DNA from: Eledone cirrhosa
Lineage: Eukaryota
Direction of reading: 5' to 3'
NCBI GenBank assembly: GCA_964016885.1
Contig: OZ024743.1
Coordinates: forward strand, 355,756,001 to 355,820,000
Length of the DNA: 64,000 nucleotides
Made by a program: the position numbers and the translations under genes. Positions 266-61,948 of this stretch are shown piece after piece; position 1 is the first letter of the stretch; each line of letters begins with the position of its first letter. Under the pieces are notes generated by a model that was not told the DNA's origin, did not search any database, and was given only the letters and a program-made list of their open reading frames with translations.

Positions 266-600
266 GATGGTAGAAATCCGTAAATGAAAGGAAAGCAATG
301 CTCAATCTGTTGTAAGAGAGCTTATTTAGTATAAACAAAGTTTCATGCAATTACCATGTATGTAATTCCATTGGTTTCGTGATCTAATCATTGGCACCAC
401 TGTATAATGGAAGAGGCACTTTTTAACTAGCTCTCCTTTGAGGCACGTGTACAAAAGGTTTAAATGAGAAGTTGATATCCCTCGACTAATTCTCCCTCTG
501 AGCGACGGAGGCCTTTATATTTGAAATCTGACTTGAAATGTTTCTCTATACGAATTTATCAAAGTTTCTAGGGTTATTCTGTCCAATAGGTAAAGGGAGA

Positions 601-1238: not shown

Positions 1239-1444
1239 TACTTCAGACTGGACTAAGTTTTTTCTACCATGATCCCCGCCAGAAATGAATTCAAAATGGC
1301 TAAGAACTATCACGTGGCTAGCGGTCAAGGCAGAAAATTTGTGACTGGTGCCTGTCGGCGAGTAGGCTGGTTGCTAGAAAGCGCAGCCGAATACTGCCTA
1401 AAGTTTTACTCAACCTTACGGGAGTATATATTAAATTCGAAGGA

Positions 1445-1681: not shown

Positions 1682-1755
<74 letters not shown>

Positions 1756-1794
1756 ATTAAATAAATGGAAAACTATATTTATAAAACCATATTT

Positions 1795-1858
1795 ATTTCA
1801 TTATATATATTTCGGGGATATCATATTAACAATATGCTATGCCTTCATCAGACAAAAT
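1795..1858 (-). ncRNA. Hammerhead ribozyme in left inverted pLTR
   Basis: Reverse complement of 5956-6019. Confidence 0.75.
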
Positions 1859-2222
1859 ACAATATAAACAGTTTTATAGATAAATATATTCGACATACCG
1901 TAATAAACATCAACTTCATTTGAAGAGGTTCACTCTAGCAGTGAAAATACAGAGAGAAAGAAAGAGAGAGAGAAAAGAGGGAAATAAGAAAGAAAGAAAG
2001 ACAAAATGAAGAAAAGGAAGAAAAAGAAGAAAAAGAAGAAATGCATGGGACAAAATAGAGAGATGGAAAAATAGATAAAGCGAAGAGCTTCATGTAAAGA
2101 GACCGAAAGATATATATATATATAGAGAGAGAGAGGAAATAGAGATAGATACATATATAAATATAGATATAGAAAAATTAGGTAGTGGGAGGTCATTTTG
2201 AGTAAGTGTATCAATGATGCAT

Positions 2223-2257
<35 letters not shown>

Positions 2258-3107
2258 GCTCAAGTATTAATGTAAGGGAGATATATAGAGAGATATAGAG
2301 AGATATAGAGAGAGAAAAATTTAAAAATAGCCAGACATATTCGAGGCGTAGAAAACCCTATGTTTTAATGTATTAGTATTTATAAAACTTACACTATATT
2401 GTAAATATCAGTATTCCTGAATGAAACAAGTATTCACAATGCGTGAAAATTCATTATCTTATGTTTAGTTTTTTAGAAAAATTCATATGTCTATGTGAAT
2501 CCAACTGATTCACTCCGCAAATTCAAAGTTACCGGAAAACATTCTCAATGTGGTATAAAAATTTGAGCGTATTATTATTCTTGCGATTACTCTACAAGAT
2601 TATCTATCAAGCAGAAATAGAGAGCAGATTTCAATATACTAATCGAAAATATATATTATATTATAAGCAGAGATAACAATAATAATGATAATAAGTAAAA
2701 ATATATAAAAATATAAAAATATAGAATAGAAAACTAAAAAAGAATATTACGAAAGAATATTACATAATAAAAATATTGCATATTAAAAATACTACGTATT
2801 AAAAATATTACGTATTAAAACTTTACATATAAAAATATTAAAAATATTAAAAATAAAAATTTACATATAAAAAAAATTTACATATAAAAAAATAAAAAAT
2901 AAAAAATAAAAATATAAAAATATTATAGAATACTACAATACTAAAAGAATAAAAATAAAAATAAAAATAAAAATAAAAATAAAAATAAAAATAAAAATAA
3001 AAATAAAAATAAAAATGAAAATAAAAATAAACCACAAAGAACAACCCTTCAAGGTTAATTGACAATATATTGCCAAGTTCACTACAAGACAAAGCCAAAA
3101 CATAACT

Positions 3108-4364
3108 ATGGGATCTTCCGACTCAGCTCAAGTAACTGACCTTGTGGGCTTATTTTTAATCAATTCGCTACATAGGAAAATACCTGGTACTACCGGAGGT
3201 TTATATAGGGATGACATGCTTTTACTTATTAATAATAATAACCCTGAACTAAATAGAAAATGTAAACAAATTACAAAATTTTTTAATTACTTTAACCTTA
3301 AAATAGAAATTGAGAACAACCATAGAATAGTCAATTTCCTAGATATAACATTAAATCTCAACACATGTCTCCACTATCCTTTTCACAAGTTGAATGAAAG
3401 CTTAAACTATGTCAACTTTAACTCTAACCACCCCAGATCTGTCAAAAACACTATAGTAAACTCAGTCCAAAAACGTATCTCTAGGATCTCGTCGAATAGA
3501 AAGATTTTTGACGAAAAGGCCCAATACTATAATGATGCACTAGCTAGGGCAGGGTATGCTGATAAGATTGTGTACATAGATAATGATAAACAAACTAAAC
3601 AAAGTAACAACTTTTTTAATTATGGCAACAACATTAACAACTATAATAGAAAGCATTACAATAATTCCAAAGGACAAAAAAGAAATAGAACTAGGAACAT
3701 AATTTGGTTTGCCCCCCCTTTCTCACTAAACATTAAAACCCACATCGCTAAATTATTTTTCAAAGCTCTTGATAATCGCTTCCCTAGAACACATAGGTAC
3801 CACTCAATCTTCAATAGGCATACAATTAAATTAACCTACTCATCCACCAAAAATTTAGCACAAAATATTAATAGAATAAATAATAGGAACTTAAAACCTA
3901 CTGATAATAGCATAAATAATATACAAGTTAACAAATGTAACTGTAGAGATAGATCTAAATGTCCGTTAAATAACAACTGCTTAGTTAAAAATATAGTATA
4001 CAATTGTAATGTTAATACTGACTCTAATTCTTTTAACTACGTCGGTTCCACATCGACGGAATTTAAACTTCGCTATAATAACCACAAGAATTCTTTCACA
4101 GATCCAAATAAAAAATCTTCAACGGCACTATCAGGTGTACTCTGGCAACTTAAGCTAGATAACGTTAGATATTCGACGGCTTGGAATATAGTCTCAAGAG
4201 GGATTCCTTTTAATTCATCCTCTGAGACATGTGACCTCTGCGCAGAGGAGATATTCTTTATACTAAAATCTAAAAATTCCCTTAACCTACGGACAAATTT
4301 ATTCAGTTGTTGCAAACATAGATTAAACTCAACGTTTAAATATAAATTTAAATTTAAAATGTAG
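3108..4364 (+). CDS. PLE polyprotein C-terminal part: RT motifs B'-E, thumb, Cys-rich linker, GIY-YIG endonuclease
   Basis: MGSSDSA (RT B'), LYRDD (RT C), NFLDITLNL, SNHP, CNCRDRSKCPLNNNC, IVY...YVGST..FKLRY..H, CDLCAEE, CCKH. The ATG is the internal motif-B' Met at the truncation junction, not a true start. Confidence 0.93.
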   Translation: MGSSDSAQVTDLVGLFLINSLHRKIPGTTGGLYRDDMLLLINNNNPELNRKCKQITKFFNYFNLKIEIENNHRIVNFLDITLNLNTCLHYPFHKLNESLNYVNFNSNHPRSVKNTIVNSVQKRISRISSNRKIFDEKAQYYNDALARAGYADKIVYIDNDKQTKQSNNFFNYGNNINNYNRKHYNNSKGQKRNRTRNIIWFAPPFSLNIKTHIAKLFFKALDNRFPRTHRYHSIFNRHTIKLTYSSTKNLAQNINRINNRNLKPTDNSINNIQVNKCNCRDRSKCPLNNNCLVKNIVYNCNVNTDSNSFNYVGSTSTEFKLRYNNHKNSFTDPNKKSSTALSGVLWQLKLDNVRYSTAWNIVSRGIPFNSSSETCDLCAEEIFFILKSKNSLNLRTNLFSCCKHRLNSTFKYKFKFKM

Positions 4365-5550
4365 TATATTTAGTTTGATTTATATTTATATGAGAACTAG
4401 CCGATAAATCTTTTGATTCCTAAATCTTTGATTCCCTCTTTTTACTCTTTTTATTGTTTATTTTATTTTATTTATTTTTATTTTTATTTTTATTTTTATT
4501 TTTATTTTTATTTTTATTTTTATTTTTATCTAAACATTCCTCATGAAAAATTAAGCTACCCTAAAAGCCGATGCTCCAAATTTTCTGAATTAACCTTACA
4601 CTTGATAAACTTATATATTAAATATAGGAACATATGTAGACATTATTGGACATCATAATCTTTTTTGCGATATTCCTTGCTAGATGTGATTTGATAGATA
4701 ATTTTTGGCTTTGTCTTGTAGTGAACTTGGCAATATATTGTCAATTAACCTTGAAGGGTTGTTCTTTGTGGTTTATTTTTATTTTCATTTTTATTTTTAT
4801 TTTTATTTTTATTTTTATTTTTATTTTTATTTTTATTTTTATTTTTATTTTTATTTTTATTCTTTTAGTATTGTAGTATTCTATAATATTTTTATATTTT
4901 TATTTTTTATTTTTTATTTTTTTATATGTAAATTTTTTTTATATGTAAATTTTTATTTTTAATATTTTTAATATTTTTATATGTAAAGTTTTAATACGTA
5001 ATATTTTTAATACGTAGTATTTTTAATATGCAATATTTTTATTATGTAATATTCTTTCGTAATATTCTTTTTTAGTTTTCTATTCTATATTTTTATATTT
5101 TTATATATTTTTACTTATTATCATTATTATTGTTATCTCTGCTTATAATATAATATATATTTTCGATTAGTATATTGAAATCTGCTCTCTATTTCTGCTT
5201 GATAGATAATCTTGTAGAGTAATCGCAAGAATAATAATACGCTCAAATTTTTATACCACATTGAGAATGTTTTCCGGTAACTTTGAATTTGCGGAGTGAA
5301 TCAGTTGGATTCACATAGACATATGAATTTTTCTAAAAAACTAACATAAGATAATGAATTTTCACGCATTGTGAATACTTGTTTCATTCAGGAATACTGA
5401 TATTTACAATATAGTGTAAGTTTTATAAATACTAATACATTAAAACATAGGGTTTTCTACGCCTCGAATATGTCTGGCTATTTTTAAATTTTTCTCTCTC
5501 TATATCTCTCTATATCTCTCTATATATCTCCCTTACATTAATACTTGAGC

Positions 5551-5589
<39 letters not shown>

Positions 5590-5955
5590 ATGCATCATTG
5601 ATACACTTACTCAAAATGACCTCCCACTACCTAATTTTTCTATATCTATATTTATATATGTATCTATCTCTATTTCCTCTCTCTCTCTATATATATATAT
5701 ATATCTTTCGGTCTCTTTACATGAAGCTCTTCGCTTTATCTATTTTTCCATCTCTCTATTTTGTCCCATGCATTTCTTCTTTTTCTTCTTTTTCTTCCTT
5801 TTCTTCATTTTGTCTTTCTTTCTTTCTTATTTCCCTCTTTTCTCTCTCTCTTTCTTTCTCTCTGTATTTTCACTGCTAGAGTGAACCTCTTCAAATGAAG
5901 TTGATGTTTATTACGGTATGTCGAATATATTTATCTATAAAACTGTTTATATTGT

Positions 5956-6019
5956 ATTTTGTCTGATGAAGGCATAGCATATTGTTAATATGATATCCCC
6001 GAAATATATATAATGAAAT
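5956..6019 (+). ncRNA. Hammerhead ribozyme in right pLTR
   Basis: auuuugu-CUGAUGA-aggc...cccc-GAAA-UAUAUA-UA-augaaau. Stem I pairs and stem III is the palindrome AUAUAUAU. Confidence 0.75.
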
Positions 6020-6326
6020 AAATATGGTTTTATAAATATAGTTTTCCATTTATTTAATATTGTAAATATACTCCAAGTATTTGTCGAGTGCTTTTATATC
6101 AGTTATAAATATTTACTAGTTGTAACCCAACAATTTTAAATATAACTTTACATGTATATATATATATATATTTATATATATATAAAATTGCAAGTTTGAA
6201 GAATTATTAGATAAAATATATACAGTATTTCCTCTCCCTAGTCCGTAGAAATCAACCACATAAATAATCATATATGTATCTGTGACTATGTCTAATTATA
6301 TACATATATCCCTTTGAATGTAATAC

Positions 6327-6382: not shown

Positions 6383-6973
6383 GATGCCTCAAATATGGCC
6401 ATTTCAAAATATAATGACCTTTTTAATTAAAAAAAAAGGAATTGTAAAATGTTATATTTTAAAATGCTTTAGTTACTTCTGGACCACACTGTATGTGTGT
6501 GTGGTTATATATATATATATATATATATATACATAGAGAGAGAGAGAGGGGGGGGGGAGATACAGAGAGAGATGTATGTAAGTATATATATATATATATA
6601 TGTGTGTTTGTATGTTTGTGTGTGTGTATAAATATGCATGTATGTATTGAAGCATACATGTATATATATATAATAGAAAACGAAAAATCAGTGATGCATC
6701 TGAACTCAATTTATTGTGTGTTACAATTGTTTCGCCGGCGAACAGCTCGAGACGCGATCATTGTGTGGATCTGTCTGATTCTGGAACCGCAGGTTCGACA
6801 GACACGTCTAATGATTTCGGAGCATATTCTCTCATATATATATATCTCAAGAGCGTGAAACTAATAAACCTTTGTTTGTACTGCCTCTATTTATGTGTTG
6901 CCGTCCCAGTTTTTACTATATATATATAGTTTTGCGAGGTTTTTGATATGAAATCGTGTGTCGAAACAAATAT

Positions 6974-7484
6974 TGTTATACTTGGGGAGGGTCATATTTG
7001 TGTAATAATATTGCCAGAATTAATAACAGAACACACTCACTGTTTGGTTGGTTTTCGCTTCTGTGTCCTTTATATCGGTTAATTTAATTTATTCGGTCCT
7101 CAATGTTACCATTGACTGACCGACGGTCAAAAATACAGATACAATATAGACACAAACACATATATATAGTCTAACAAAGTTCTTTCGTTGCACATCTGCA
7201 ACATAGTCAGTGGTGCTATTATGTTTCCTCCCGTTGTATTGTATGCCTAAGCCATCTTTAAAGATGGCGTAGGCATACAATATATGTATATATATATGTG
7301 TTTGTGTCTATATTGTATCTGTATTTTTGACCGTTGGTCAGTCAGTGGTAACATTGAGGACCGAATAAATTAAATTAACCGATATAAAAGACACAGAAGC
7401 GAAAATCAACCAAACAGTGAGTGTGTTCTGTTATTAATTCTGGCAATATTACACAAATATGACCCTCCCCAAATATACAAATAT

Positions 7485-12076: not shown

Positions 12077-12515
12077 GGCTATATGGTGGACGAGGTTAAA
12101 AGGGCTGAGGTCAGACACCTTTCTCTCCGGCGAGCAACTGATTCCTTTTTTCAAATATCATTTTGGAAGAAGAATCAGGATGGAGAGAGAGGTGCTGTAC
12201 CCCAGCAAATTTTATAAAAGGTGGGTGAACGTGGCAAAGATGGCCCGAGTGGTTGGGCCTTCTCTCTATATAAGCCTGTAAGTTGAGGAAAAAGAGGAAG
12301 AGAGGAAGGGAGTACTCACTCTTGGTGCTCCTGGAGATGAGGGTTGTACATTTTTTCGGGGTGTGTACAACCCCTGTGTAACACCTCCCTCCTATTGGGG
12401 ATTTCAATTGTTATTTGTTATTGTATTAATAGTTTTATTTTCATATACCTGTATGTAAACTCCCCATTTGTATTTGTTCCCTTCTTTTGTGCCCTTGTGG
12501 CTAATAAAGAAATTT
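12077..12515 (+). mobile_element. Tx1-clade LINE 3' fragment (copy A)
   Basis: WWTRLKGLR...VVGPSLYISL* and the 3' UTR match 20270-20705. It ends gtgcccttgtggctAATAAAgaaa next to (TATC) repeats. Confidence 0.9.
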
Positions 12516-12528
12516 ATCTATGTATCTA

Positions 12529-12770
12529 TGGCGAAAATGGCCCAAGTGAGTGGACCTTTTCTGTATATAAGCCTGTAGGTTGAGGAAGACAAACAGGGGG
12601 AAGACGGGAACACCTACAAAACGTGCTCCTGATGTTATTTTAGTATTGTTATTTTATTTTATATATATAGTTTATTGTTATTCATTAATATAAAAAAATG
12701 TTATGTAAAACCCCCGCCGTCACGTCTTGTAATGTCCCTTTTTGTACGCCCTTGTGGCAAATAAAAAAAA
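12529..12770 (+). mobile_element. Tx1-clade LINE 3' fragment (copy B, divergent 3' UTR)
   Basis: ggcgaaaatggccc...ataagcctgtag followed by a 3' UTR ending gcccttgtggcaAATAAA, then (TCTA)n. Confidence 0.85.
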
Positions 12771-12792
12771 TCTATCTATCTATCTATCTATC

Positions 12793-14598
12793 AAGGGGAA
12801 CGGCTACCTATCGGAGCCGTTCGCAATCACGCGTTCCATTCGACAGGGATGCCCTCTATCCTCCATTCTGTACGTATTGACTCTAGAGCCACTACTGCGG
12901 AAGTTGGAGCTTTTGCAGGGCATCCCTTTAGAATCAGGACTGCGAAAAGTGGCGTCCGCTTATGCTGACGACGTGACGGTAATGGTGTCGAAAACCTCGG
13001 AAATCGAGGTAATCGGCAACCTACTACAGGAATACGAAAGGTTCACAGGAGCAAAACTGAACCCGGGCAAGTCTGTCGGTTTGCAACTCGGAACGTGGGG
13101 AGGCAAACTGATGCCGTCCGACAGCGTCGTCGAACGCTGGGCGGAAGGACAGGTGAAATTGCTCGGGGTCTGGTTCAGTCCAAACCTCCAGGTGGAGAAA
13201 AACTGGAACGAGGTCATGGCCAAGGTATTTGCGCTCACCCAGAAGTGGGCAGAGTGCAAACTGTCTTTGAAAGGTCGAGCGGAGGTGGCGAACACTTTCA
13301 TAGCGTCCGTCATCTACTACCGCTTGACTGCCGTGCCTTGTCCCCGTGAATACCTCACCAAGATGGAACGCATGCTCGCTCTTCCAGTTCCTGTAGAAGA
13401 AGCAGGCTCCACTGGTGAGGAGTTCCGTCTGCTGTCAACACCCTTCCAACGGAGGGCTGGGCATGCCGTGGCTAATGATGCGCAAACATGCGCTGAGGCT
13501 ACGGCATCTTCAGATATTCCTCACCGACCAACCGGTGTGGGCACTGTTTGTGAGGCAGGTCTTCCCGCAACTTGTCTCGCTGACGGAGCTGCAGTCCTGG
13601 ATCAAGCGAAGACCGAAGAAGATGGGCGCCTGGCACATTGAATGCGCCCAGGCGCTCACAGTCCTCTGTCAAGCGGGCACAGCAATCAGTGGAGACTCCA
13701 CTTCGACATTCTATAGAGGATTAGTACTTTACAAGTGCGAGGACGTGCTCGGGGAGACTCTAGGCGTCGAAGACGACGAGCTCACCAGTCTGTTCGGTAG
13801 GACTTTCCGCCCGGGACCTATAGACAACTTCCAGAAGTCTCTGGCCTGGCAGTGCTACCGAGGAGCTCTACCTGTTCGAGATAAGATATACAGGCACGGA
13901 CGCCCCGGCAGGGATCCTTCCAAGAGGACGTGTCCAAGATGCGAGCAGGATATTGAAACCGTCTTGCACGCAATTGTACACTTCCCGGGCGTAACCGACT
14001 TTTGGAACTATGCAGAACAACTGCTGTCGCGTATGGGACAAATCCAGTTGACTGCCGAGTCCATAGTAAGGATCAAACAGCCAGCCTCTTTCAAAAACGA
14101 AAGAGAAGCGGTTTTCCTCTGTACAGTGGCTATGGTGAAAGAAGTTATATGGTGGACGAGATTGAAAGGACTGAGGACAGATGCCTTTCTCTCCGGACAA
14201 CAATTGATTCCCTTCTTTAAGTATCACTTTAGAAGAAGAATCAGAGTGGAGAGAGAGGCACTGCACCTCAGTAAATTTACTGAAAGGTGGGTGAATGAAG
14301 CGAAAATGGCCCGAGTGATTGGGCCTTCTCTGTTTATAAGCCTGTAAGTTAAAGAAGAGAGTAAAAGGAAGAAAGGAGTACTTGCACAACACGCTCCTAA
14401 AGTTGAGGGTTGTTCTATCGACGGGGTATTAAACAACCCATTTGTGGCGTCTCCCCCCCCCCCCCCTATTGGGGATTTCGATTGTTATAATTGTTGTTTG
14501 TTTTATATTTTTTTTTACTCGCCTGTATGTAAAATCCCCGGCATGTGTCTTTGTATTGTCCCCTTTTCTTGTGCGCACTTGTGGCAAATAAAGAAATA
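12793..14598 (+). mobile_element. Tx1-clade LINE, 5'-truncated copy C (RT C-terminal half plus CCHC region)
   Basis: SIRQGCPLS, AYADDVT, CPRC...ETVLHA. Frameshift near 13380. Flanked by (TATC)n on both sides. Confidence 0.93.
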
Positions 14599-14632
<34 letters not shown>

Positions 14633-14843
14633 CTTCTTCTTCTTCTTTACTTCGCCCACTTATTTCCTGAGAGAGTCGTGGGGACAGAGTCCTCAAACAC
14701 TCTTTCCAGCGGGTCCTGTCAGAAGCAACTGTCCCCAACTGATCCATCTATCTATTTATTTGTCTATATATCTTTCTACCTAACTGTTGATCTGTATTTT
14801 TGTCTGTATCTGTCAATCTACCTCTCCATCCATCCATCCTTCC

Positions 14844-14875
<32 letters not shown>

Positions 14876-15101
14876 CTCTATCAGGCGTGTGTCACTTCGC
14901 GGAGAAGTTTCCGTTAATTTATGTAAGAAAAAAAACGTGAGTTTTTAGTTAAATTTTATATCATTGTGTAACTTGACCACCCGTCTGGACCTTCAGGTGG
15001 TGGGTCAACTCATTCTCGCCCCTACAGGGGCGGAATATCCATTAAAAAAAATTTTCTCCGTCGAATCTTGGAAAATAATATTGTAAAATTTTGATTACGT
15101 T

Positions 15102-17003
15102 ATGAACGCTGCGTCCAACGATAATGGTGGTGGAGAGGCGGTAAGACTACAAAGCTCGCAGTCAACAACGTCTTCTTCACTAGATACTATAGAGATGGAA
15201 AGACAAAATGAAAATAAAAAAAACGAATTCATATCCAAACAACACAAATGACACCAAACAGCTCAATGACAACAAAAATAACAGCAAAACCAATAATGAT
15301 GATAAAAGCAACAATGATAACAACAACAAAGAAAAAAATAAAGACAACGCCAATAACACCAGCATCAAAGACAACAACAACACGAAGGAAAATACGGATG
15401 ATACCAACATCGGTGACAACAAGAATAACAACAAGAATAACAACAATAATGACAACACCACCAATACGGATTCCACAAAGAAACCAAAAATCTCCTTTGC
15501 AGAGAAAGTTCAAAAGAAAGAAGATTTGATATATCTCGACATAACAAATGCTGAACAACTTTTAAAGGACGCTAAGAGATATGTCACTTTCGAAAAAAAT
15601 GGTGCTTTCAGCATCAATTCTCCGGTAGAAATTCGCAAGGAAACTGCTCTCAAAACAATAGTTTTTAGGACAGTTTCCAATTCTACCCGAAAACCAGTCC
15701 AATTGTCACAGAAAGAAATTGAACTGGTTTTCAAAAATTCAATGAATGATATTGCATTCATTCAAAGAAGCAAACTTTTGGGGAGTATTTCGGTACTCAT
15801 GAAGGATCAATTGACGGCCCAAAATTACTGTGTCGCCAATTGTATCCAACCTGTACACCTTTTTCGCTACATACATGGGAAAAAGGACACAAAAGATCAG
15901 AAACACGAGTGTCACACCAAAGGTGAACATATGGTGGATACTGTGCGGCTTCATCAATTTTGATGAAGACAGAATACTGTCAGTAGGAAAGTCCCCCAGA
16001 GACTAGCATTGAAGTTCTGGTGCAAATGAGCCCAGAGCGAATAGCTATGATCCCACAGCGTGTACTCCTGGACGGACTCACCTACATAAACTTTTCGGTT
16101 GAGGGTAGGCGGCCTTCATGTTACCATTTCTTTAGCAGGGGTCACCTGAGGGCTTCCTGTCCTAAACTAATGAACCAAAAAAAGGCTCTTCTGCCGACAC
16201 CCATCAAAACAACACAACCACCAACACCACCACAACAACAACAACACCAACACACAAAAATAACCACAACAAACACAGTCCCACCCAACCCCACTCCACC
16301 TAAAACCACTGCAAAATCACATACAGACACAACAGCTCCCCAAGACATACCCCTCCCCAATCACACAGACGATACAACAGATGAGCCTATCTCGCCATCA
16401 CCCAGTGAAGACGAGGGAGAACCCCATCGCTCGAAAAGAAAGAAAAGACATCACAAAAGCAAAAAACCAGCAAACACTACCACAAACATACAACCACCAA
16501 CACAAACAACAAAAACATCACAAACCAAACTCCCACCTCCTGAAAACAAAATACCTACAACAAAACGAAAGCACACACAAGAACTACAGACAAAAACAAA
16601 CACAACACAAGAAAATTACACTTACACTTACATAAACACTGAAAACAAAACACTAATGGAGACCATCACTAACGACCCTTCGGTGAAAAGCGAAGGGAAA
16701 ACTTTCGCCCACTCTATTAAAAATAGCAAAAAACTGAACCTAAAACTGATTAGGGTCCCTATACAAACTTATAGGTCCCTAAAAGAAACATTTGAGAAGG
16801 ATGTGGGGAATTCCTGCGTGAAACCACTCAACCGCGTCCTTCTCAAATGCCTCCCCACCCCAGACACCCCCATCCCACCAGACCCCACCCCACCAAACAT
16901 CTGCGTCCCCACCCAACCGGAAACCACCACCCATCCAGACAACCCCTTCAACACCCCCATGGAAATCGTGCGGCCTGGTCCCCAGGAGGCGAAGGGTGAG
17001 TGA
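15102..17003 (+). pseudogene. Tx1 ORF1 (gag-like), frameshifted
   Basis: N/K/D-rich N-terminus, NFSVEGRRPSCYHFFSRGHLRASC (degenerate CCHC knuckle) and a P/T-rich C-terminus. Split over 15208-15963 and 16020-17003. Likely ATG at 15102. Confidence 0.8.
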
Positions 17004-17036
17004 TCTCTTTTCCTCTTTTAACTTTTCAGCACCAAC

Positions 17037-20000
17037 ATGGCCAATATAAGAGTTGGATGTGTGAACGTACGTGGCCTGGGGATGCCCTGGAAACAGGGCA
17101 AACTCTTAAACGACCTCAGGTCGCACAGTATGGATGTGGTAGCCATTTGCGAGTCCAGGATCCACGGCGAGCGACAGCTGGCCCCCATCTTCGATGACTT
17201 TGAGATCTACGCATCTCTCTGTCAACCGGGGGGTGGGGGCGGAGTTGCCGTTTTGCTGCGGAAACACCTGGGCCTCGTAACACAGACGGTACATCTGGAC
17301 CCGGAGGGTCGACTGGTGGTCCTAGACGTTGACGGTAGTGAAGGTGGAGCCTTCAGGCTGGTGGCCGCATATGCCCCATCCGGGACACCGCGGCCAGACT
17401 TCTTCAAACGTCTAGAGACTTTTCTGGGAACGTCCCGCTCCTTGCTTTTAGTGGGGGACTGGAATGGAATCCTAGATGCACGTTGGGACTATGTGGGAGC
17501 ATGTCCCGATAAAGGGGGGTGTAACAGTTAATCGACCGATTTGACCTGGCCGATAGATATCGACTAGATTTTCCGACTGCGCCACTGTGGACGTGGAGTA
17601 ATCGTAGCGGAACATCTAGATCGTACCTAGATAGGGTTCTAGTTAGAAATAAGGATAGGGACATGTTAAGCTGTCCACAAATGTTCATGGTTGCCTATTC
17701 AGATCACAAACTAGTGACCTGCATGGCCAACCTTGATAGAAACCATAAACAAGGACCCGGCTACTGGAAGCTGAACTTGTCGTTACCGACAAGCAAAGCC
17801 TACAGTAGACGGATTAGCACTTTAGTTAAACAGCACTTGACAGGGGCCATTGTCAACAACAGATGGTGGTACTCTCTCAAGAGAGAGTTAGATTAGACTC
17901 GATAGTTTTTAGTAAAGAATTAGCGTTAGATAGAAATAGAACCGAGAAGGAACTGGTAGATAAAGTAGAAGAGGCAATTAGAAGTGGCAACGTAGCCAGC
18001 GTGCTAGCAACGAGAACGGCCTTGGACCAGTTCTTCGACGCAAAGCACGAGGGCTGCATTGTCAGAAGCAAAATACGTGCTCTGGGAAACGAGGGAGCCA
18101 AAGCTGTTAGCTGGGCCCGAGTGACGGAGGCAAAAAGTGGCAACAAGTCCACGATTCGGTCTTTGAAGGACCAAAACGGACGCGTGATACGTGAGCCGAA
18201 GCAGATGTGTGCGGCTTTTCAGAGGCACTTTGCTCGGCTGTTCGGGGGGAGCGGCGCGCCGGGAGAGGCTATGGATTTCGGTCCATACCTCGACGGCCTA
18301 CCGCGACTCCCGGACAGCGAGGCAAAGTTCTGCGAAAAGCCGATTTCAGCCACTGAGATAGGGGACGCGCTGAGCCAATGCGGCAAACGCAAATCTCCAG
18401 GTCTCGACGGTCTACCCTACGAATTTTACGTAGCAATGCCAGACTTATTCTCCGGTCTCCTGGAAGCGGTCTACTGCAACTGGCAACAGAACGGGAGAAT
18501 TCCCAGTTCTGTAACCGGGGGCGTGGTCACACTAATCAGGAAGGACGAGAATAAGGGGGATGACATAGACAACTTCCGGCCCATAACTCTGCTAAACACA
18601 GAGTTACAGATTTTGGCCAAGGTGTTGGCAAAGAGGCTGGCGCTTCTCGTCGAGAACCTGGTGGGAGAAGCGCAGACATGCGCAATCCCGACCAGGTCCA
18701 TACACGACAACCTCCACCTCATGCGATACATCATAGAGAGGGTAGGGTGTAAACCCGGCTTCGGTGGGGCCCTGATCAACTTGGATCAGTCTAAGGCTTT
18801 CGATAGGGTTGACCATCGTTACCTGGATGCGGTGCTCGAGGCGGCAGGCTTCGGACCCGTGTTCAGGGGCTGGATTGCTGCAATGCACAACAGCAACATC
18901 TGCTCAAGGGTCAAGGTGAACGGCTACCTCTCGGAGCCGTTCCATATTACGCGATCCATTCGACAGGGATGCCCTCTCTCCTCCCTTCTGTACGTACTGA
19001 CTCTCGAGCCACTACTGCGGAAGCTGGTGCTATTGCAGGGCATCCCTCTGGAACCGGGACTGCGGAAAGCGGCGTGGGCCTACGCCGACGACGTAACAGT
19101 AATAGTGTCGAGCGCCTCGCAAATCGAGGAAGTCGGCACCTTACTGAAGAAATACGAAAGTCTCACAGGAGCGAAGCTGAACCGGGATAAGTCCATCGGT
19201 TTGCAACTCGGATCGTGGAGAGGCAGACCGATGCCTTCCGATGGCGTCGTCGGACGCTGGACGGAAGGACCGGTAAAGCTGCTCGGGGTCTGGTTTGGTC
19301 CGGACCTCCAGGTGGAGAAGAACTGGAACGAAGTGACGGCCAAGGTGTTTGCACTCACCCAGAAGTGGGCCGAGTGCAAACTATCCTTGAAAGGTCGAGC
19401 GGAGGTGGCGAACACTTTTATAGCGTCCGCCATCTACTACCGCTTGACCGTCGTGCCTAGTCCAGCCAAAACGCTCGCCAAAATGAAGCGCGTGCTCTTC
19501 CGATTCCTTTGGAAGAGGCGGGCTCCTTTGGTGAGAAGATCCATCTGCTGCCAACACCCTTCCAACGGAGGGCTGGGGGATGCCGTGGTTGACGATGCGC
19601 AAACACGCGCTCAGGCTGCGGCATCTCTATGTATTCCTCACCGGACAACCGGTGTGGGCCCCGTTCGTGAGGCGAGCCTTCCCACGACTCGTCTCTCTGA
19701 CCGAGCTGCAGCCCTGGGTCAAGCAAAGACCGAGGAAAATGGGCGACTGGCACATCGAATGTGCTCAGGCGCTCACAGCCTTCTGGCAGGCGGACCCGGC
19801 GATCAGTGGAGACTCCACTTCGTCATTCTATAGAGGGTTGGTCCGCAGCAAGTGCGACGACGCGCTCGGTGAAACTCTAGGCGTAGAGGAAGATGAACTG
19901 GCCAGTCTGTTCGGTAGGACCTTCCGCCCGGGACCGATGGACAACTTCCAAAAGTCCCTGGCCTGGCAGTGCTACCGAGGAGCTCTACCAGTTCGAGACA

Positions 20001-20464
20001 AGCTCTACAGACATGGGCGCCCGGGCAGGAACCCTGCAAAAAAGATCTGTCCGAGGTGCGTGCGAGACGAAGAAACCGTCGCGCACGCATTCATACACTG
20101 CCCGGGCGTCACTGACCTGTGGGGCTATGTAGAACGACTATTGTCGCGGGTGGGACCAATCCGGTTGACCACCGAGTCCATTGTCATGATCAAACCGCCA
20201 CCCTCCTTCAAAAACGAAGGAGAGGCGGTTTTCCTTTGTGTGATAGCTATGGCGAAAGAGGTTGTATGGTGGACAAGGTTGAAAGGGCTGAGGTTAGACA
20301 CCTTTCTCTCCGGCCAACAACTGATTCTTTTTTTCAAATACCACTTTGGAAGAAGAATCAGGGTGGAGAGAGAGGTGCTGTACCCCAGCAAGTTTTATGA
20401 AAGGTGGGTGAAAGTGGCGAGAATGGCCCGAGTGAATGGGCCTTCTCTCTATATCAGCCTGTAG
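17037..20464 (+). pseudogene. Tx1 ORF2: APE endonuclease, reverse transcriptase, C-terminal CCHC; about 3 frameshifts
   Basis: CVNVRGL, ICES, AYAPS, GDWN, YSDHK, GPGYWKLN, KSPGLDGLPYEFY, FRPITLLN, LDQSKAFDRVDH, RQGCPLS, YADD, CPRC...HAFIHC. Frame breaks near 17525, 17885 and 19575. Confidence 0.95.
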
Positions 20465-20705
20465 GTTGAGGAAAAGGAGGAGGAGAGGAAAGGAGTACAA
20501 ACTCTTCGTACTCCTGGAGATGAGGGTTGCACATTTTTTTTCGGGGGTATGTGTTACCCATATGAACTGTCTCCCCCTATTGGGGAAAATCGACTAACTT
20601 TTTTAATTCCATTTGTGATAACATTTTACACGTTTTTATTGTATGTAAACTTCCCCCTTTGTATTTGTCCCCTTCTTTTGTGCCCCTGTGGCTAATAAAG
20701 AAATA

Positions 20706-20753
<48 letters not shown>

Positions 20754-23079: not shown

Positions 23080-23110
<31 letters not shown>

Positions 23111-23404
23111 AGTAAAAATTAGCGAGAATCGAATTTCAGCTCAGGAATTAACGAAAAACACTTCCGAGTTGTGCGGCAAGCGCTCGATAATTCATATGAA
23201 TTAGAGCTACAACTTACGTTAAAGGCCAAACACACTGAGATGGTGGTTAAACTAATCATCCGCACAGCGAAAAAACGACTGTCTGATTCGGGTCAAACAG
23301 ATATACAAATATAAAAATATATAAAAATATATATATGTATATATATATATATATAGGGTAACAAGTTATCGTTATAGGTAATCCAGTTAGAGGTTGTGAG
23401 GTAA

Positions 23405-23861: not shown

Positions 23862-24081
23862 AGAATTAGTATATTTACCAACATATGCGTACAGATGTAC
23901 ACTAATGCTAGCAAATACATAAGTTATGTCATAGTACCTAGGTGGTTCTATGCAGGGGGATGCAGAACAATTATATGAAAGACGTAAAATAAGAAAATTT
24001 TTAAAAATTAAAAATTACTTACTTAGTAAGTAAGTTAATTTTTAATTTTTAAAAATTTTCTTATTTTACGTCTTTCATATA
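23862..24081 (-). repeat. Fold-back terminus plus tail of the 38766-39590 element family
   Basis: Hairpin at about 23973-24081. The tail 23862-23972 is homologous (reverse complement) to 39466-39588. Confidence 0.8.
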
Positions 24082-24373: not shown

Positions 24374-26379
24374 AACGAAGGAAGTGTGGTAAGGAACCAG
24401 GTGGACCATAACGCACCAGAGCACTCAATACTTAGTGTAGTAGAGTGGGTAATAGGAAAATGTTCAAGACCCCGACGGCAGAGCTCAAGCCGTTTCGACG
24501 GCTATTTCTGGACTGAATTAGATTTTTAGCGTGGTAATAAATAGCCGAACTTTTCAAGGGGTAATTCCTTATATGGAAGATTGTAGTTGTCAAAAGGATT
24601 GGTCAAAATTTCTTGTAAACACAACTAAAACTTTCATGGCGGTGGGAGACAATTTCTTGGACGTTACCCTCAACCTCGAAAATGATCTATACAGGAAACC
24701 AAACGACAACCTTCACTACATCCACCGCTGCTCTAACCATCCTAGAAACATCACCAATAACCTGGTTTAAAACATCTCCCTCCCTCCACATATCTCGTTT
24801 GTCCACTAATGAGCAGATATTCGATGAACATGCGCCTTATTACAACCAGGCCCTCAAGCGAAGCGGCTTTCGGAAGGAAATCTCCTTTTACCCAGCTTCC
24901 CTTAGAGGAACCAGCAGGCGACGCCGCCGCTCACGCCACGTAACATAGTTAAACCCTCCCCACAATGCCGAGGCTGTAACACCAATCGGGAAAATCTTCT
25001 TTAGGCTTCTCGAAAAACACTTCCCACCACAGCACCACTACCACAACATAATCAACAAAAACATTATCAAACTCTCCTACAGCACCACACCCAACTTCGC
25101 ACAAAACATCGTCTCCTCAAACAACAAGAAACTCAACTCTTATGGCAGAAACAACCTAGACATTAGTAGAGAGCTGACAAGGAGGTGTAACTGCCCTGAT
25201 AGATCTACGTGCCCCCTCAACAACAGATGCCGAGAACGTAACGTGATCTACCAATGCAACGTGAGGACGAAAAACTCCAATAGGATTAATCGCTTTATAG
25301 GATTAACCGCTTGTGACTTTAAGATCCGGCTCTACCAACACCGACTACGTTCAGAAACCCAGCCCGGCGACATGCCACTACACTTTCGGGCCACATCTGG
25401 GACCTCCAAGATAATAACATCACATACCATCTACTTGGAGCTTACTTTCTAGAGCTAACACCTACACAGGAAAACGCCGTCCGTGTAACTTATGCTCGGA
25501 GGAAACAATACAAATGCTGTTTACGAAGAACCCACGTCTAAATAAAAAAGACGAACTTGTAACCGCATGTAAACACCGATTGCGTAGGACTTACCTCGCC
25601 CTCGAACATCCTCATCACCCGGGTGGGTAGATAATGGCTGCAACATCCTTCTTTTCCCCACTTGCCGAACAAGATAGGGGAAACCCCAGCATACATAGGT
25701 AGATGTACTTCTTTTCTTTTTTCCCTTTATCGCTTCTTCTCACTTCCTTCCACTCCCTCTCCTCTTCCTTTTCCTTTTTTTCCCTTTCGCTTACCCTGAG
25801 GCATCCCATCGTGCTTTTGTAGCCTCAGTACCCCCACCCCCAGTAAATGCTATATAGCATTGGCCGAAAACGCAATACTAGCTAAAAATATAGCAGCTGT
25901 TTTAGACTCTAGTTTTTTTATTAATTTTTATTATTTAATTTTTTAATATTATTATTTTTATTTATTATCTTTTTATTTTTTAATCTCAATTTATTAACTT
26001 TTTAATTTTATAACTTCCCACTCTCAGATTCCTCCAGAATTCTTTTTTCGTCTGCCTTATAGCTAGCCTAATTTCTTACACACTCCTTAGAATTTGCTGT
26101 ATAGAATTCACTTTCAACGCTTGACCGGCTCCACCAACTCCCTCATTGTTCTACAGGCAAGTTTAGCCACCCCCACCACACACCCACCGCCATGAAAGTT
26201 TTAATTGTGATTAGAAGAAATGTTGACCAATCCTTTTGACAACTACAATCTTCCCATATAAGGAATTACCCCTTGAAAAGTTCGGCTATTTATTACCACG
26301 CTAAAAATTCTAATTCAGTCCAGAAATAGCCGTCGAAACGGCTTGAGCTCTGCCGTCGGGGTCTTGAACATTTTCCTAT
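24374..26379 (+). mobile_element. Second Naiad-like PLE, 5'-truncated and decayed, with inverted pLTRs
   Basis: Inverted arms 24452-24646 and 26183-26379. The coding remnant 24647-~25615 has NFLDVTLNL, SNHP, CNCPDRSTCPLNNRC, VIY..FIG..FKIR, CNLCSEE and ACKH, with stops and frameshifts. Confidence 0.9.
26268..26362 (+). ncRNA. Type I hammerhead ribozyme, U3-A8 core variant (inverted copy 24469-24562, minus strand)
   Basis: acccc-UUGAAAA-g..cggcuauuu...aaauagccg.c-GAAA-CGGC...GCCG-UC-ggggu. 5-bp stem I, 9-bp stem II, GUC triplet. Confidence 0.8.
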
Positions 26380-31575: not shown

Positions 31576-31587
31576 ATATATATAGAT

Positions 31588-31795
31588 GTGAGAAAAACCA
31601 CAGACCCTCCATCTCAACTCTACTTTTGAAAAGCAGAAGAACTGCGAAACCGGTAAAGGAACCAAATAAATATTTTTTTTTTTTTAAAATAAGACTCCAG
31701 TTGCATTTTCGATTTCATCTTTTTTTCTTTATACTTTCACTCGTGTAGGACACCTCGGTCATTTTCCATTTTGTAAAAAAATCTCACTTTCTAAT
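31588..31795 (-). mobile_element. About 200-bp 5' segment of a non-autonomous Helitron-like family (also 32910-33108, 51073-51272 inverted, 51273-51535)
   Basis: Near-identical to 50853-51048, which is part of an element with a Helitron-type CTAG 3' end. Confidence 0.65.
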
Positions 31796-31811
31796 ATATA
31801 TATATATATAT

Positions 31812-32905
31812 ATCAAAATGAAAATCCGAAGGCAGGGTAAAATTCCAATCATTTAATCACGACACACGACACATGTTTCAATAAGAGATAGATCGATTGT
31901 GAAGCCATGATCGATTATCACTGATCTCATCAGGTGAAAATGAATTGTCTTCAAATTCTTGATATGACAGAAAAATAACGATGTTCTCTCACAGAATTCA
32001 TACCCTTTTTTGGACGATTCGGATATGTATATACAATAACATACACTTGAAGATATGGATGTTACAATTCAATCTATACACGTATAGCAGAACACTGAAC
32101 TGAACTTACTTGCTTGTCTGTGTGGTGTGTATAGGGCGTTGGTTAACCCAATATTTCCAATTTACATTGTCAAATTGAGATTTGACCAATATAGCTTCTG
32201 TTGTTTTGTGAACTAACTTTCGGTGAGTGCTGTGTTAGTACATTCTTATATTTGTTTCCTTATATTTGTTTTTTCTCGGACATCGCTTCGGTGTGTGTGA
32301 GAGTGTGTGTGTACCCACCCACACTAACTCTACAGGTTTAATACTGTGTTGATGTGTGTATATATATGTATATATTTTTCTTTGACCTCGAGCCGGTGTA
32401 TGTGGGTGTGGAATGTGTGTGTACTCACTCACATTAACTGTGACTGACTGTATCCCTACAGATTTGATTGATGTCCAGCGTCTTTTGCAGCGATAGAAAT
32501 CTGAAAACTTTTATGACCTCAACTGAAGTTAATAGCAGTCGCCGTGTCTCTGACTGGTGTGTCTTCATATGAGGGAATGAATTCTGTGAGAGAACATCTT
32601 TATTTTTCTCTGTCATATCAAGAATTTGAAGACAATTCATTTTCACCTGATGAGATCAGTGATAATCGATCATGGCTTCACAATCGATCTATCTCTTATT
32701 GAAACATGTGTCGTGATTAAATGATTGGAATTTTACCTTGCCTTCGGATTTTCATTTTGATACTTATACTCCGTTTTACATCATCTAGCTGTTCCCTTGA
32801 ATGGAATTGGAGATATACAAAAGTGTGGAGAACTTAATATTGCTAACATAAAGTTATTGGACCATTTTACACAACCAATAATGCACCTTACTATATAACA
32901 ACTAT
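31812..32905 (+). mobile_element. ORF-less PLE-type fold-back element with HHR and tail
   Basis: Inverted arms 31812-32005 and 32573-32762, tail 32763-32905. Left end abuts (TA)n. Confidence 0.8.
32643..32716 (+). ncRNA. Hammerhead ribozyme (inverted copy 31865-31937, minus strand)
   Basis: ucac-CUGAUGA-gau...-GAAA-CAUGUG-UC-guga. Stem I is ucac/guga and the triplet is GUC. Confidence 0.75.
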
Positions 32906-33103
32906 ATATATGCGAGAAAAACCACAAACCCTCCATTTCAACTCTACTTTTGAAATGCACAAGAACTGCGAAGCCGGTAAAGGAACCAAATAAATATTTT
33001 TTAAAAGACTCCAGTTGCATTTTCGATTTCATCTTTTTTCCTTATACTTTCACTCGTGTAGGACATCTCGTTTTTTTTCATTTTGTAAAAAAAACCTCAT
33101 TTG

Positions 33104-33191
<88 letters not shown>

Positions 33192-33377: not shown

Positions 33378-33574
33378 GAACTTTTTTTGTTTAATATAAG
33401 GAACTGTTTCATTGTTTTATTCATTATTTTTGTAATATTTTATCTTGACTCTGTATTCCGTTTATCTTTCACCGAAAGTGATTTTTGAATGCATCTCTTC
33501 TTTCCATGATATCCGGATTATATTGAGTTCTTCATACGGATTGGACACAACCGTAAACTCTTGGTAGATTTATC

Positions 33575-33990: not shown

Positions 33991-34190
33991 NNNNNNNNNN
34001 NNNNNNNNNNNNNNNNNNNNNNNNNNNNNNNNNNNNNNNNNNNNNNNNNNNNNNNNNNNNNNNNNNNNNNNNNNNNNNNNNNNNNNNNNNNNNNNNNNNN
34101 NNNNNNNNNNNNNNNNNNNNNNNNNNNNNNNNNNNNNNNNNNNNNNNNNNNNNNNNNNNNNNNNNNNNNNNNNNNNNNNNNNNNNNNNNN
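33991..34190. other. Assembly gap (200 N)
   Basis: Run of N. Confidence 1.
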
Positions 34191-37500: not shown

Positions 37501-38264
37501 AAAGGTAGATATGTAGGTATGTGTGTAGATAGGTAAACAGACAGGCGGGTAACTTAGTGGGGGAAAAGACAGGCTGGTAGGTAAACAAATAGACAGGTAT
37601 GTAAGCAAATAGACAGGTCGGCGAATAAATAGACAGACAAACAAATAGATAGGCAGAAGGATAGGCAGACAAGCTAACCTCTGGATTATTTACACTGCTT
37701 TTTATCTAATTCCTATATATAAGCGCAGACAAAATTTATTATATCAAAATAAACAATGTACATAATATTACATAATAGCAAAGTTCACATTGGCTATGTA
37801 TTTAGGGAGTTCGCTTCGCAACAATGAAGTTCTGGATTCAGTCACGCTACGTGGCATTTTGGGTTGACCAAAGTCATGTGAGTGAAATTTGGTAAAGAGT
37901 ACCCGCTGAAACCTGTCGTATATGTGTGTGTATGTTTATGTGTGACAGTTTCTATGTTTATTTATGTCCCGTTATATAACGGTTCGACAAAAAAGAGAGA
38001 CCCAAAAAAATATGTACCAGAATTGAAAAATAAGTATTGAGCCGTTATAATCGACGAAAGGGGACGGTGCTCCGGCAAGATTGCAATCTAATGACTGAAA
38101 AATGTAAAAGACTATTGTTGAGGTTGAAAGGCTCAATGAGGAAGATTCCCTTGCTTCAATGAGCCCATGGGGTTTTGTGTTGTATTGAACATTCCAAATG
38201 TCACGGAAAAGTTTTACTCTAAAAATAACACAGATTGAGTTCTCTTTATCTTAAAAGTAGTAGC

Positions 38265-38720: not shown

Positions 38721-38765
<45 letters not shown>

Positions 38766-38771
<6 letters not shown>

Positions 38772-39590
38772 GATGTAAAATAAGAAAATTATAAAAATTA
38801 ACTTACTTACTAAAATTTCACTCCAACAAATTACTTTCTGAAAGGGAATAAACATGGTTTCCGAATGGAACACAAGGAGAATGCCTTTCGTCATCAGGAA
38901 GTCAATTCTCAGCTAAGTTCCCAGGCGATGAATATAATTGTTCTGCATCCCCTTGCATTGAACCACAAAGTTACTAAGACAAAACCTATATATTTGCTAC
39001 CATAGGTATGCATCTGTATATATATGTTGGTAGATATACTAATTCTTTATAATTATCTCCAAATTATTTTGTTGAGCAAAAATTTGCCAAAACTGCTACT
39101 ATAGTTCATAGTAATAGTTCGGCTACTGTCTTCTTAACACCCCACTCCTCACTGATTAACCTCGATGTCACGTGATTGATTCTTTTGAATTTGCCACCGA
39201 CCAAGGAGGTAGTGATTTTTTTCAATGTCTTGGAATTTAGTCCACGCTTGCTTTTTTCCATCCACTGAATTATTTTTGTATAAGTTCCCTGTGTCCACGC
39301 ACCGCCTGGGAACTTAGCTGAGAATTGACTTCCTGATGACGAAAGACATTCTCCATGTGTTCCATTCGGAAACCATGTTTATTCCCTTTCAGAAACTAAT
39401 TAGTTGGAGTGAAATTTTAGTAAGTAAGTTAATTTTAATAATTTTCTCATTTTACGTCTTTCATATAATTGTTCTGCATCCCCTTGCATTGAACCACAAA
39501 GTTACTATGACAAAACCTATATATTTGCTAGCATAGGTATGCATCTGTGCATCTGTATATATATGTTGGTAGATATACTAATTCTTTATA
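38766..39590 (+). mobile_element. Non-coding HHR-bearing retrozyme-like element with a 531-bp unit and an inverted 5' arm
   Basis: 38766-38927 is the reverse complement of 39303-39465. 38932-39050 is a direct repeat of 39463-39588. Bounded by (TA)n. Confidence 0.85.
39328..39410 (+). ncRNA. Hammerhead ribozyme (degenerate inverted copy 38820-38902)
   Basis: acuuc-CUGAUGA-cGAAAG...CUUUCa-GAAA-CUAAUUAG-UU-ggagu. Palindromic stem III. Confidence 0.75.
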
Positions 39591-44600: not shown

Positions 44601-44885
44601 AGCCGATGCATAATAGAGATGATTTAAGTCAGTAATGTTTATTTTGTTTGTGATGATAATGTTTTTGAGAATTATGTTAGTCTTGTGTATTATCTTTTGG
44701 TTCTGTTTGGAGTTCTGGATCTTAGGGAGGGTGTCTCGTTCCCCCATGTCAGATTCTTTCATTTTCATCCATTCGATCATAATTTCATCCTTCAAGTTGG
44801 CAAGTTCATTCTCATTCATTTCTTTATCATTTACGATCTCATTATTTTCATTTAGAGTTTCATCCTGAGCATGCACTCCCTCCAC

Positions 44886-44890: not shown

Positions 44891-44982
<92 letters not shown>

Positions 44983-45442: not shown

Positions 45443-45594
45443 ATATTGTATTGTTTATTATACATTAAATTCAGCTCTGTAACTTACATAGAGCACTCTT
45501 CACTCCTATGACTTTTTCAATTTTCAACGGAAACTTCAATACATATATATATATATATATTTATATATGTGTGTGTGTGTATGTATGTATGTAA

Positions 45595-46784: not shown

Positions 46785-48702
<1,918 letters not shown>

Positions 48703-48762
48703 GTTATTCCGGGTTGAATCGGAGGTAACCACAGTAAGTAAGGTACTCAATACATAGCAGAG

Positions 48763-48817
<55 letters not shown>

Positions 48818-53234: not shown

Positions 53235-53652
53235 GGAGGTGAGTTTTATTGTAGTACAATAAAGCAATGCAGATATCGGATAAGAAGCACTCTACAGTTT
53301 GTAGGACTGGAGTATACATAATATATAAGATCAAAAGATGGTTAAAGGAGTTCCATGTATTTTATTATGCGCATTTCAAAAACAAACATCATCATGCAAT
53401 AATATTTGTGTTTTCATCAGATAAAACAGGAGAACATGATATGAAGGCTAAAAACACTTGTGGATAGTGCAGTTTTAAATCAACATATATTGATATGTTG
53501 ATTTAAAACTGCACTATCCACAAGTGTTTTTTAGCCTTCATATCATATTCTCCTGTTTTATCTGATGAAAACACAAATATTATTGCATGATGATGTTTGT
53601 TTTTGAAATGCGCATAATAAAATACATGGAACTCCTTTAACCATCTTTTGAT

Positions 53653-61493: not shown

Positions 61494-61948
61494 TTACGTG
61501 GTTTTGTCATCGCGTGCAATTGTTCTCTACGCTCCACATATGACGTATAATCTTCGTTTTTTCCGTTCATTGCCAGAGAACGTCTCTATGAACCACCTAA
61601 TAGAATATTAGTCTACGACTTCTTTTATACCATAAACGTGGTTTTGTCTTTGCGTGTTTTTCACTGCTACAAATAATGACGTATTATATTCGTATTTTCC
61701 CGTTCTTTGCCAGGGAACCAAAGTATCGTCTTCCTGTCTTCCTCCGGTTGCAACGTTTTTTGAAATATTTACTTCTGCGTTCACAGATTGACTTTGTTAG
61801 TTTCAGAAGATCCCGTTAAGGGTGAAAGCAGCGATTCTTTGCTTAAACTTTAATCTATTTTAATAAATATTTGCTCTACGGTTCTTATATATATGATATA
61901 TATTTATCCTTATCGAGCCCTCTTTGGATTTTAGTCTTCTATTATTAT

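Follow-up and report, generated by a model that had tools for sequence, protein, structure and literature searches.

Two copies of a short, covarying, predicted bulged hairpin stand at the two alternative ends of insertions of Hydra-type Penelope-like elements (PLEs) in the genome of Eledone cirrhosa, and each copy is probably a landing site for the element protein that sets an internal start of reverse transcription on the UA-like stretch just 5' of it, the tail of these elements being the RNA between the two starts. The hairpin lies in a 64,000-nt stretch of contig OZ024743.1 (assembly GCA_964016885.1, positions 355,756,001 to 355,820,000, forward strand; hereafter the window, in whose numbering coordinates without a locus name are given). 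A preliminary description of this stretch had listed ten RYTC...GARY stems of 4 bp in the tails of apparently unrelated PLEs and proposed that they form a conserved RNA element. The genome (3.0 Gb) is AT-rich and has many microsatellites, and the window holds many fold-back (inverted) insertions in (TA)n. Below, an insertion end just 5' of the first hairpin is called short (S) and one just 5' of the second hairpin long (L).

Predicted structure of the twin hairpins

The arrangement is best seen in family A (site 6064..6095), at the right end of a fold-back whose arms (1744-3109 and 4694-6070) are 98.8% identical. The inverted arm (1744..3109, minus strand) runs out in (TA)n near 1750, which is the S position, and includes an inverted hammerhead core (1851-1810). 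A 5'-truncated open reading frame (ORF; 3063..4364, plus strand) encodes the C-terminal half of a reverse transcriptase (RT) and a GIY-YIG-like endonuclease of the Hydra-type PLEs. The remaining features are on the plus strand: a type I hammerhead-like core in the pseudo-long terminal repeat (5963..6004, CTGATGA...GAAA), which is under the Rfam gathering score and whose cleavage is only predicted; the S end (6063..6065), 5-7 nt upstream of hairpin 1, which is the junction with (TA)n in 24 of the 27 short ends of family A; hairpin 1 itself (6070..6089), with a lower stem (6070-6073/6086-6089), an upper stem (6074-6076/6081-6083), a 2-nt bulge (6084-6085) and GCT directly after it; and a tail of ~90 nt (6065..6157) reaching the L end. 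All 30 family A copies have the tail; 12 also have an inverted arm, and all 12 arms end at the short site. Three of the 30 copies read through beyond the tail, and there hairpin 2 begins 91 nt after hairpin 1, 4-5 nt past the long end. The ORF starts 19 nt after hairpin 2 and is complete, with 736 aa, in locus L032.

At all ten window sites the 5' and 3' four-mers of the preliminary description are present, but the 4-bp stem is the base of a larger hairpin, RYUC, upper stem, 2-nt UN bulge, GARY, with at least two extra pairs and a bulge that begins with U in 10/10; an RCT after the 3' strand, said to be frequent, occurs at 4/10. In 44 hairpins whose 3' half was chosen by a rule blind to pairing, the first three upper-stem pairs are formed in 105 of 132 cells with a 2-nt bulge, compared with 34-46 for bulges of 0, 1 or 3 nt. 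The rule-based covariation table lost hairpin 2 of family I (I2), whose loop is shorter than the rule allows, and four of its rows (C1, J2 and both of L180) are mis-assigned. Since the lower stem was used in choosing the sites of the preliminary description and the metagenome 5' halves (see below), the blind test in those hairpins is limited to the upper stem. In the lower stem the two outer pairs show G-C/A-U and C-G/U-A swaps, and on a protein tree of 15 proteins, all from this study, at least two independent changes are required to account for the A-U form of the outer pair. In a 24-sequence alignment, 95% of the cells pair and the covariation score is 0.52, versus 0.19+/-0.03 in shuffled alignments and at most 0.18 when slid. 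The two hairpins also differ from each other: the first upper pair is U-A in 18/28 first hairpins and C-G in 14/16 second hairpins. The Rfam covariance models gave no match in the window and one chance-level match in five metagenome loci.

Inserts between the hairpin halves range from 6 to 99 nt, and hairpin 2 of family I has a C-UUCG-G loop in most copies. In family C (L190-L202) the loop of hairpin 2 has a (TA)n-rich stretch of variable length, so that this element carries its own target inside a hairpin.

Short stems are common (535 loose matches in 1.6 million strand-bases). Enrichment relative to shuffled sequence was examined in 80 stretches of 10 kb (800 kb) taken at even steps along four chromosomes, plus the window. 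Inverted repeats were found without using the motif and kept if one end lay in (TA)n, giving 55 fold-back ends in 32 clusters, of which two simple-sequence clusters were dropped. Among the held-out clusters, which have no BLAST match to the window, 7/13 have RYTC with its exact partner at offset -4..+10, whereas 2000 dinucleotide shuffles gave 0.51+/-0.69 (maximum 4) and the reverse strand 0/13. One of the seven (cluster 18) probably has a chance partner, and the six misses include families of other kinds; among window-related clusters the motif is present in 8/17. A model of the bulged motif matched 51 times in the sample (an array being counted once), with a TA run 20-110 nt downstream in 40 and upstream in 10, against a background of 6%. 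The held-out tests refute chance stems in AT-rich tails as the explanation, and with the covariation, the distant loci and the second-hairpin prediction described below, we leave that explanation practically no probability.

That a second hairpin would lie just past the long end of other families was predicted after family A and before these other families were examined. It is there in 6/6 families of the preliminary description that have read-through copies, most of which came from protein searches: canonical in A, B, C, F and I, and variant in J. Families K (canonical) and M (variant) likewise have one. Hairpin 1 and hairpin 2 are 76-137 nt apart in B, C, F and I, and the variants of J and M have the outer pair open. 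Hairpin 2 is not present in finished long ends. For families D, E, G and H no read-through copy was seen, and a genome search for family G found nothing. A candidate second hairpin for cluster 1 (L037) was rejected and not counted, since it belongs to a different family as its hairpin 1, cluster 1 being nested in front of it.

Position of the insertion ends

Ends were mapped on references 250-350 nt long. In eight twin-hairpin families, 215 of 222 (TA)n junctions fall at most 20 nt 5' of hairpin 1 or hairpin 2; the 215 comprise 83 short and 132 long ends, the long ones being favoured because family A and B loci were fetched with tail queries. About 90% of these junctions overlap positions -8..-4, and the class-weighted peak (22 end classes) is at -5 to -7. 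Thus the offset from the boundary is fixed, as the preliminary description had it, but is about 3-9 nt and not 6-10 nt. In the window itself an inverted arm can be seen to end at the stem at only four of the ten sites (6070, 24446, 39471 and 53313); the offset is borne out by other copies of the family at five further sites, site 321 being a single copy. A CTGANGA hammerhead core is present in the 220 nt upstream at only 5/10 sites.

The junctions share 2.8 nt of microhomology with the TA run, versus 1.0 nt for random breaks. In the elements, the TA dinucleotide peaks at -6 (20/44 hairpins) and TA-likeness is raised over -10..-4. This, together with the place of hairpin 2 shortly before the start codon, might suggest that UA-rich stretches alone set the ends and that the hairpins serve translation, RNA stability or hammerhead folding. 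However, TA-rich sequence runs through the whole of these regions, and the ends nonetheless gather at the two hairpins and nowhere else; both hairpins are retained in family J, which is non-coding, and families B and I retain theirs with no CTGANGA core within 200 nt. We therefore regard this explanation as highly improbable.

Fold-backs consist of one short and one long end in 57/58 cases (47/48 without the family-defining pairs; 19/20 in the even sample plus window), and in 57/57 after removal of duplicates and with a 6.5-kb limit. The sole long+long pair (window 38437/45547), 7.1 kb apart with arms 82% alike, probably represents two insertions; it was kept in the 58 and lies beyond the 6.5-kb limit. 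The long copy is longer in nine of the 58 fold-backs and the short copy in six, three are unresolved, 26 are near-palindromes and 14 have no arm match; in 12/57 the two copies share no arm. The centres of short fold-backs cluster at natural inverted repeats, 168-204 nt from the short end in family A (window 5850-5885) and 54-65 nt in family B, and may mark the RNA 5' end or an annealing site.

These fold-backs could also be produced by snap-back synthesis: hairpin 2 would be the only RNA-primed start, and the complementary DNA (cDNA) would fold back and be copied, with hairpin 1 acting as a stop or template-jump boundary for the second strand, in the manner of a telomerase template boundary. 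Self-priming has been proposed for PLE palindromes (PMC3846280), the centres of 26/58 fold-backs have gaps of less than 40 nt, many being perfect palindromes at natural inverted repeats, and the arms within one insertion are the most alike (best or tied in 16/16 for family A and 6/11 for B). Yet snap-back synthesis cannot yield the six insertions with a longer short copy, the 12/57 without a common arm or the solo short ends, and one motif at one offset would have to serve as the start site on one strand but as the stop site on the other. The six and the 12/57 rather argue that the short end needs a priming of its own, and we consider snap-back synthesis unlikely. Because the element is present twice, it marks both ends and not only a second priming or template jump: of the roles offered in the preliminary description, internal initiation of reverse transcription fits best.

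Protein clade and distribution

The complete ORF of L032 is a single ORF with an RT (YRDD) and a C-terminal endonuclease (GIY-YIG-like YVGST). It had no Pfam match, and a single-chain structure model of low confidence (mean predicted local distance difference test 61, from eight sequences) matched generic RT folds only. Family A has RWR and DKT, and seven metagenome ORFs have RWK with DKT or DKS; the RW pattern was unmatched in families B and I, which keep DKT/DKI. The CxCX5C linker, CxxC and CxH occur in 10/10 ORFs longer than 700 aa and are absent from two truncated ORFs. CCHH is absent, with at most one cysteine inside the GIY-YIG core against two in Neptune-like proteins (alignment, by eye). 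By the motifs of PMC8557442 and by insertion into (TA)n, the families with a readable ORF match Hydra-clade Penelope elements. The statement that the families have no other similarity is true of their DNA only: the ORFs are homologous (31-69% identity among the 15 proteins) and have the Hydra-clade motifs in common. A hammerhead core is present in A, C, F, G and J, none was found in B and I with a simple pattern, and none matched Rfam at the gathering score. Families B and I (L205, L233) are young and ORF-bearing, with twin hairpins and no CTGANGA core within 200 nt upstream; their hammerhead may be lost or variant.

The hairpins extend to distant relatives. Sixteen metagenome loci were chosen by protein alone and one duplicate was dropped; in the remaining 15, a hairpin lies within 200 nt of the start codon in 11 (shuffles 0.70), three of which (L178, L184 and L186) count through an imperfect or mis-paired match, and two or more hairpins in five (shuffles 0.05). 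The 2,623 nt upstream contain 16 matches, the 25,048 nt downstream 5. In locus L173 a 3'-end copy stops 2-6 nt before the expected start of hairpin 2. A search of viral contigs found no related loci.

Non-coding elements carry the hairpins too. Family J is a 556-nt hammerhead repeat, with a type I core in the unit inspected and both hairpins; an array at L089:4024-9617 (minus strand) has at least 11 units and ends 3-8 nt before hairpin 2, at the long site. The window has copies at 38763-39590 and 23862-24023. With its non-coding tandem hammerhead monomers, family J fits the non-LTR retrozymes (LTR, long terminal repeat). A further tandem unit of 573 nt, family S (L074:2721-3335, minus strand; window 23110-23207), has hairpin 1 and a degenerate second hairpin, about 7-8 nt before which the unit ends.

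The motif is not general to PLE tails. Two Neptune-like families (GLKF, DKG, CX4CxxC; window 50850-51537 and 31579-33186; L275-L278) have short and long ends separated by 61 and 33 nt, and the RYTC hairpin is at neither end. Both have ACTYGTGT-NNN-ACACCTC directly following the short end and CACACGA directly following the long end, and these stretches are able to pair across the tail. This motif, seen in these two families only, is a candidate clade-specific counterpart of the twin hairpins. Two high-copy TA-targeting families (window 6929-7160; L040:7007-7450, L243-L254) have fixed short and long ends 56 nt apart; they lack the RYTC hairpin, and an ORF was found in neither of the two loci checked.

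Proposed mechanism

We propose that the element endonuclease would cut both strands of (TA)n while the protein binds each hairpin and keeps the directly preceding UA-like stretch in its active site. Each freed 3' end would anneal, over 2-4 nt, to the UA-like RNA immediately before a hairpin, and from there it would be extended toward the RNA 5' end. A start at hairpin 2 would copy hairpin 1 and the spacer, that is, the tail, whereas a start at hairpin 1 would leave them uncopied. The two cDNAs would then meet head to head and be joined, giving an inverted structure in which one side alone has a tail. Non-coding retrozymes retaining both hairpins would be mobilised in trans. We judge the core of this proposal, a landing site and an internal start at each hairpin, to be probable from the sequence comparisons. 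In a bolder version, two protomers on two non-equivalent hairpins, each priming from one side of the cut (TA)n, would simultaneously make two copies of a single RNA, which might be a circle produced by the hammerhead and so lack a 3' end; we consider this version possible but less likely than not.

Several results weigh against initiation at two RNA hairpins. As regards the structure, two of five alignment measures did not beat the shuffles (72 and 302 of 500), and of the whole hairpin RNAalifold returned the 4-bp lower stem alone; a comparison of sense with antisense folding favours neither strand (pair probability 0.74 vs 0.71, sense higher in 22/40), and the excess of G-U in the upper stem (15, against 7 A-C) is mild. 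Hairpin 2 is degenerate in the J, M and S-like families. As regards the ends, 31 long and 24 short ends are unpaired, and inspection by eye of the 24 solo short ends found a missed inverted tail in only eight; near-perfect palindromes (26/58) are also explained by snap-back synthesis. The four motif-negative families have two fixed ends each and one short with one long end in 24/26 fold-backs, so that the motif is not required for this architecture in other PLEs. Finally, the RT starts of PAc (Poseidon of Anolis carolinensis), a PLE of another clade, lie inside the ORF, within one AC-rich stem-loop rather than 5' of it, and are described as lacking homology to the target (PMC11167929). Overall, the proposal of a conserved, covarying cis element is upheld as regards the fixing of insertion ends, the folding of the RNA being our reading of the pairing pattern.

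Since the folding data do not tell the strand, the motif could be read in DNA: the GIY-YIG endonuclease, or the resolution of an intermediate, would recognise a single-stranded or cruciform stem and cut ~6 nt away, trimming longer cDNAs. The Drosophila virilis tail is needed for endonuclease recognition (cited in PMC11167929), and the tail has been ascribed to endonuclease-mediated resolution (PMC8557442). On the other hand, inserts of 6-99 nt and a one-sided bulge are ill-suited to the recognition of duplex DNA, the C-UUCG-G loop of family I and the mild G-U excess suit RNA, and hairpin 2, which finished long ends lack, would need to be copied and removed again every time. Reading in DNA thus seems improbable to us. 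The hairpins might instead cause the RNA to be cleaved or terminated ~6 nt before the stem, with ordinary target-primed reverse transcription (TPRT) then starting on two RNA 3' ends. This would give the same genomic ends, and PAc RNA-seq read ends do fall on the start sites (PMC11167929); however, PAc initiated internally on RNAs with extended 3' ends (PMC11167929), and one short and one long end per insertion are not explained by RNA cleavage itself, which makes it decidedly improbable.

Other features of the window

The other sites of the preliminary description are also first hairpins. Family B has hairpin 1 at 24423..24446 (minus), with hairpin 2 in read-through copies such as L205, and a further copy, not previously listed, that fits the motif at 47767..47790 (minus). 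Hairpin 1 of family C (33448..33528, plus) has a 71-nt insert, hairpin 2 being present in L196 and others. No read-through copy was seen for hairpin 1 of family D (48519..48543, plus), of family E (48745..48763, minus) or of family G (53289..53313, minus), the last within a near-perfect fold-back (53328-53654). Family F has hairpin 1 at 45474..45494 (plus), a second window copy at 38510-38490 (minus), and hairpin 2 in L062 and others; family H (300..321, minus) is a single copy in the data analysed, and family I (61873..61918, plus) has hairpin 2 in L233 and others. Hairpin 1 of family J (39471..39494, plus) has the GTTC/GAAC form, with more copies at 38940-38963 (plus) and 23968-23945 (minus), and its hairpin 2 (39056..39077, plus), with the outer pair open, is the sole read-through second hairpin recognised in the window. 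An S-like hairpin 1, absent from the preliminary description, lies at 23182..23207 (minus), followed by a tail and then (TA)n. The motif model also gave weak matches, consistent with the bulged form and assigned to no family, at 1408-1425 (minus) and 38208-38248 (plus).

The window further contains a LINE-like (long interspersed nuclear element) open frame of 1069 aa with an RT domain (41793-45002, minus); at least two broken LINE copies, 80% alike, with endonuclease, RT and zf-RVT pieces (12080-20738, plus); several long overlapping open frames of 314-602 aa with no Pfam match (57116-59830, minus); and a 200-nt assembly gap in a long simple repeat (33991-34190).

Relation to known systems and significance

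The elements, the tail and the existence of two internal starts are already known; the twin bulged-hairpin motif is the new part. Hydra-clade PLEs share with the elements studied here a single ORF with RW[KR], DKT, the CxCX5C linker, CxxC and CxH, as well as (TA)n targets, hammerhead cores (here in families A, C, F, G and J), tandem and inverted copies and an optional tail (PMC8557442). They differ in that the published tails are 30-40 bp and attributed to endonuclease-mediated resolution, and that the available part of that paper describes no RNA structure in the tail, whereas in the twin-hairpin families tails are about 60-170 nt and have the hairpins as boundaries. In PAc the RT starts internally at two sites that bound the tail and extends both strands in vitro; the hammerhead is not needed in vitro, and a dimer is predicted (PMC11167929). 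PAc and the mechanism proposed here have in common two internal starts bounding the tail, the cutting and extension of both target strands, and an AT-rich target. In contrast, the proposed starts here lie in the 5' untranslated region, 5' of two conserved bulged stems and with 2-4 nt of TA microhomology, and the accessible text on PAc reports no repeated or cross-family motif. Family J is of the kind of metazoan non-LTR retrozyme proposed to be moved by PLE enzymes (PMC7229834; bioRxiv 10.64898/2026.07.22.740005); in the portion of the preprint at hand, the words 'hairpin', 'stem' and 'tail' gave no match. Within the available parts of the PLE and retrozyme literature, including PMC11167929, PMC8557442, PMC3846280, PMC4209133, PMC2377424, PMC7229834 and bioRxiv 10.64898/2026.07.22.740005, no description of the twin-hairpin motif was found. 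The choice of the start site, and the origin of a one-sided tail with an inverted arm, were left for future work (PMC8557442, PMC11167929).

The proposed start sites also recall systems outside PLEs. The template boundary element of telomerase RNA lies 5' of the template and stops copying. Similarly, a stem bound by an RT related to the telomerase RT would set the limit of copying a few nt from itself, and in both cases the primer aligns to a short internal repeat-like stretch; the hairpins here, however, follow the copied region on its 3' side, would determine where copying starts, and come as a pair. In hepadnaviruses, the bulged stem-loop epsilon recruits the RT and sets initiation, as proposed for the hairpins here, and templates protein priming from its bulge. 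L1 twin priming, in which two primings on one RNA give an inverted insertion, uses an internal site that varies and makes a single copy of each part, whereas here neither site varies and one region is copied from both.

A short, covarying motif that occurs twice and is conserved across proteins only 31-69% identical is a likely start-site signal, and the twin hairpins are a candidate for the cis signal of retrozyme mobilisation, missing so far. Their positions provide a rule for locating true element ends in annotation, and a point of comparison for the way in which the nearest relatives of telomerase place an internal template. If one RNA is indeed copied twice, both insertion ends would be made by TPRT with no separate second-strand priming, and a cassette of ~100 nt would be the whole cis signal, sufficing to move non-coding retrozymes or cargo.
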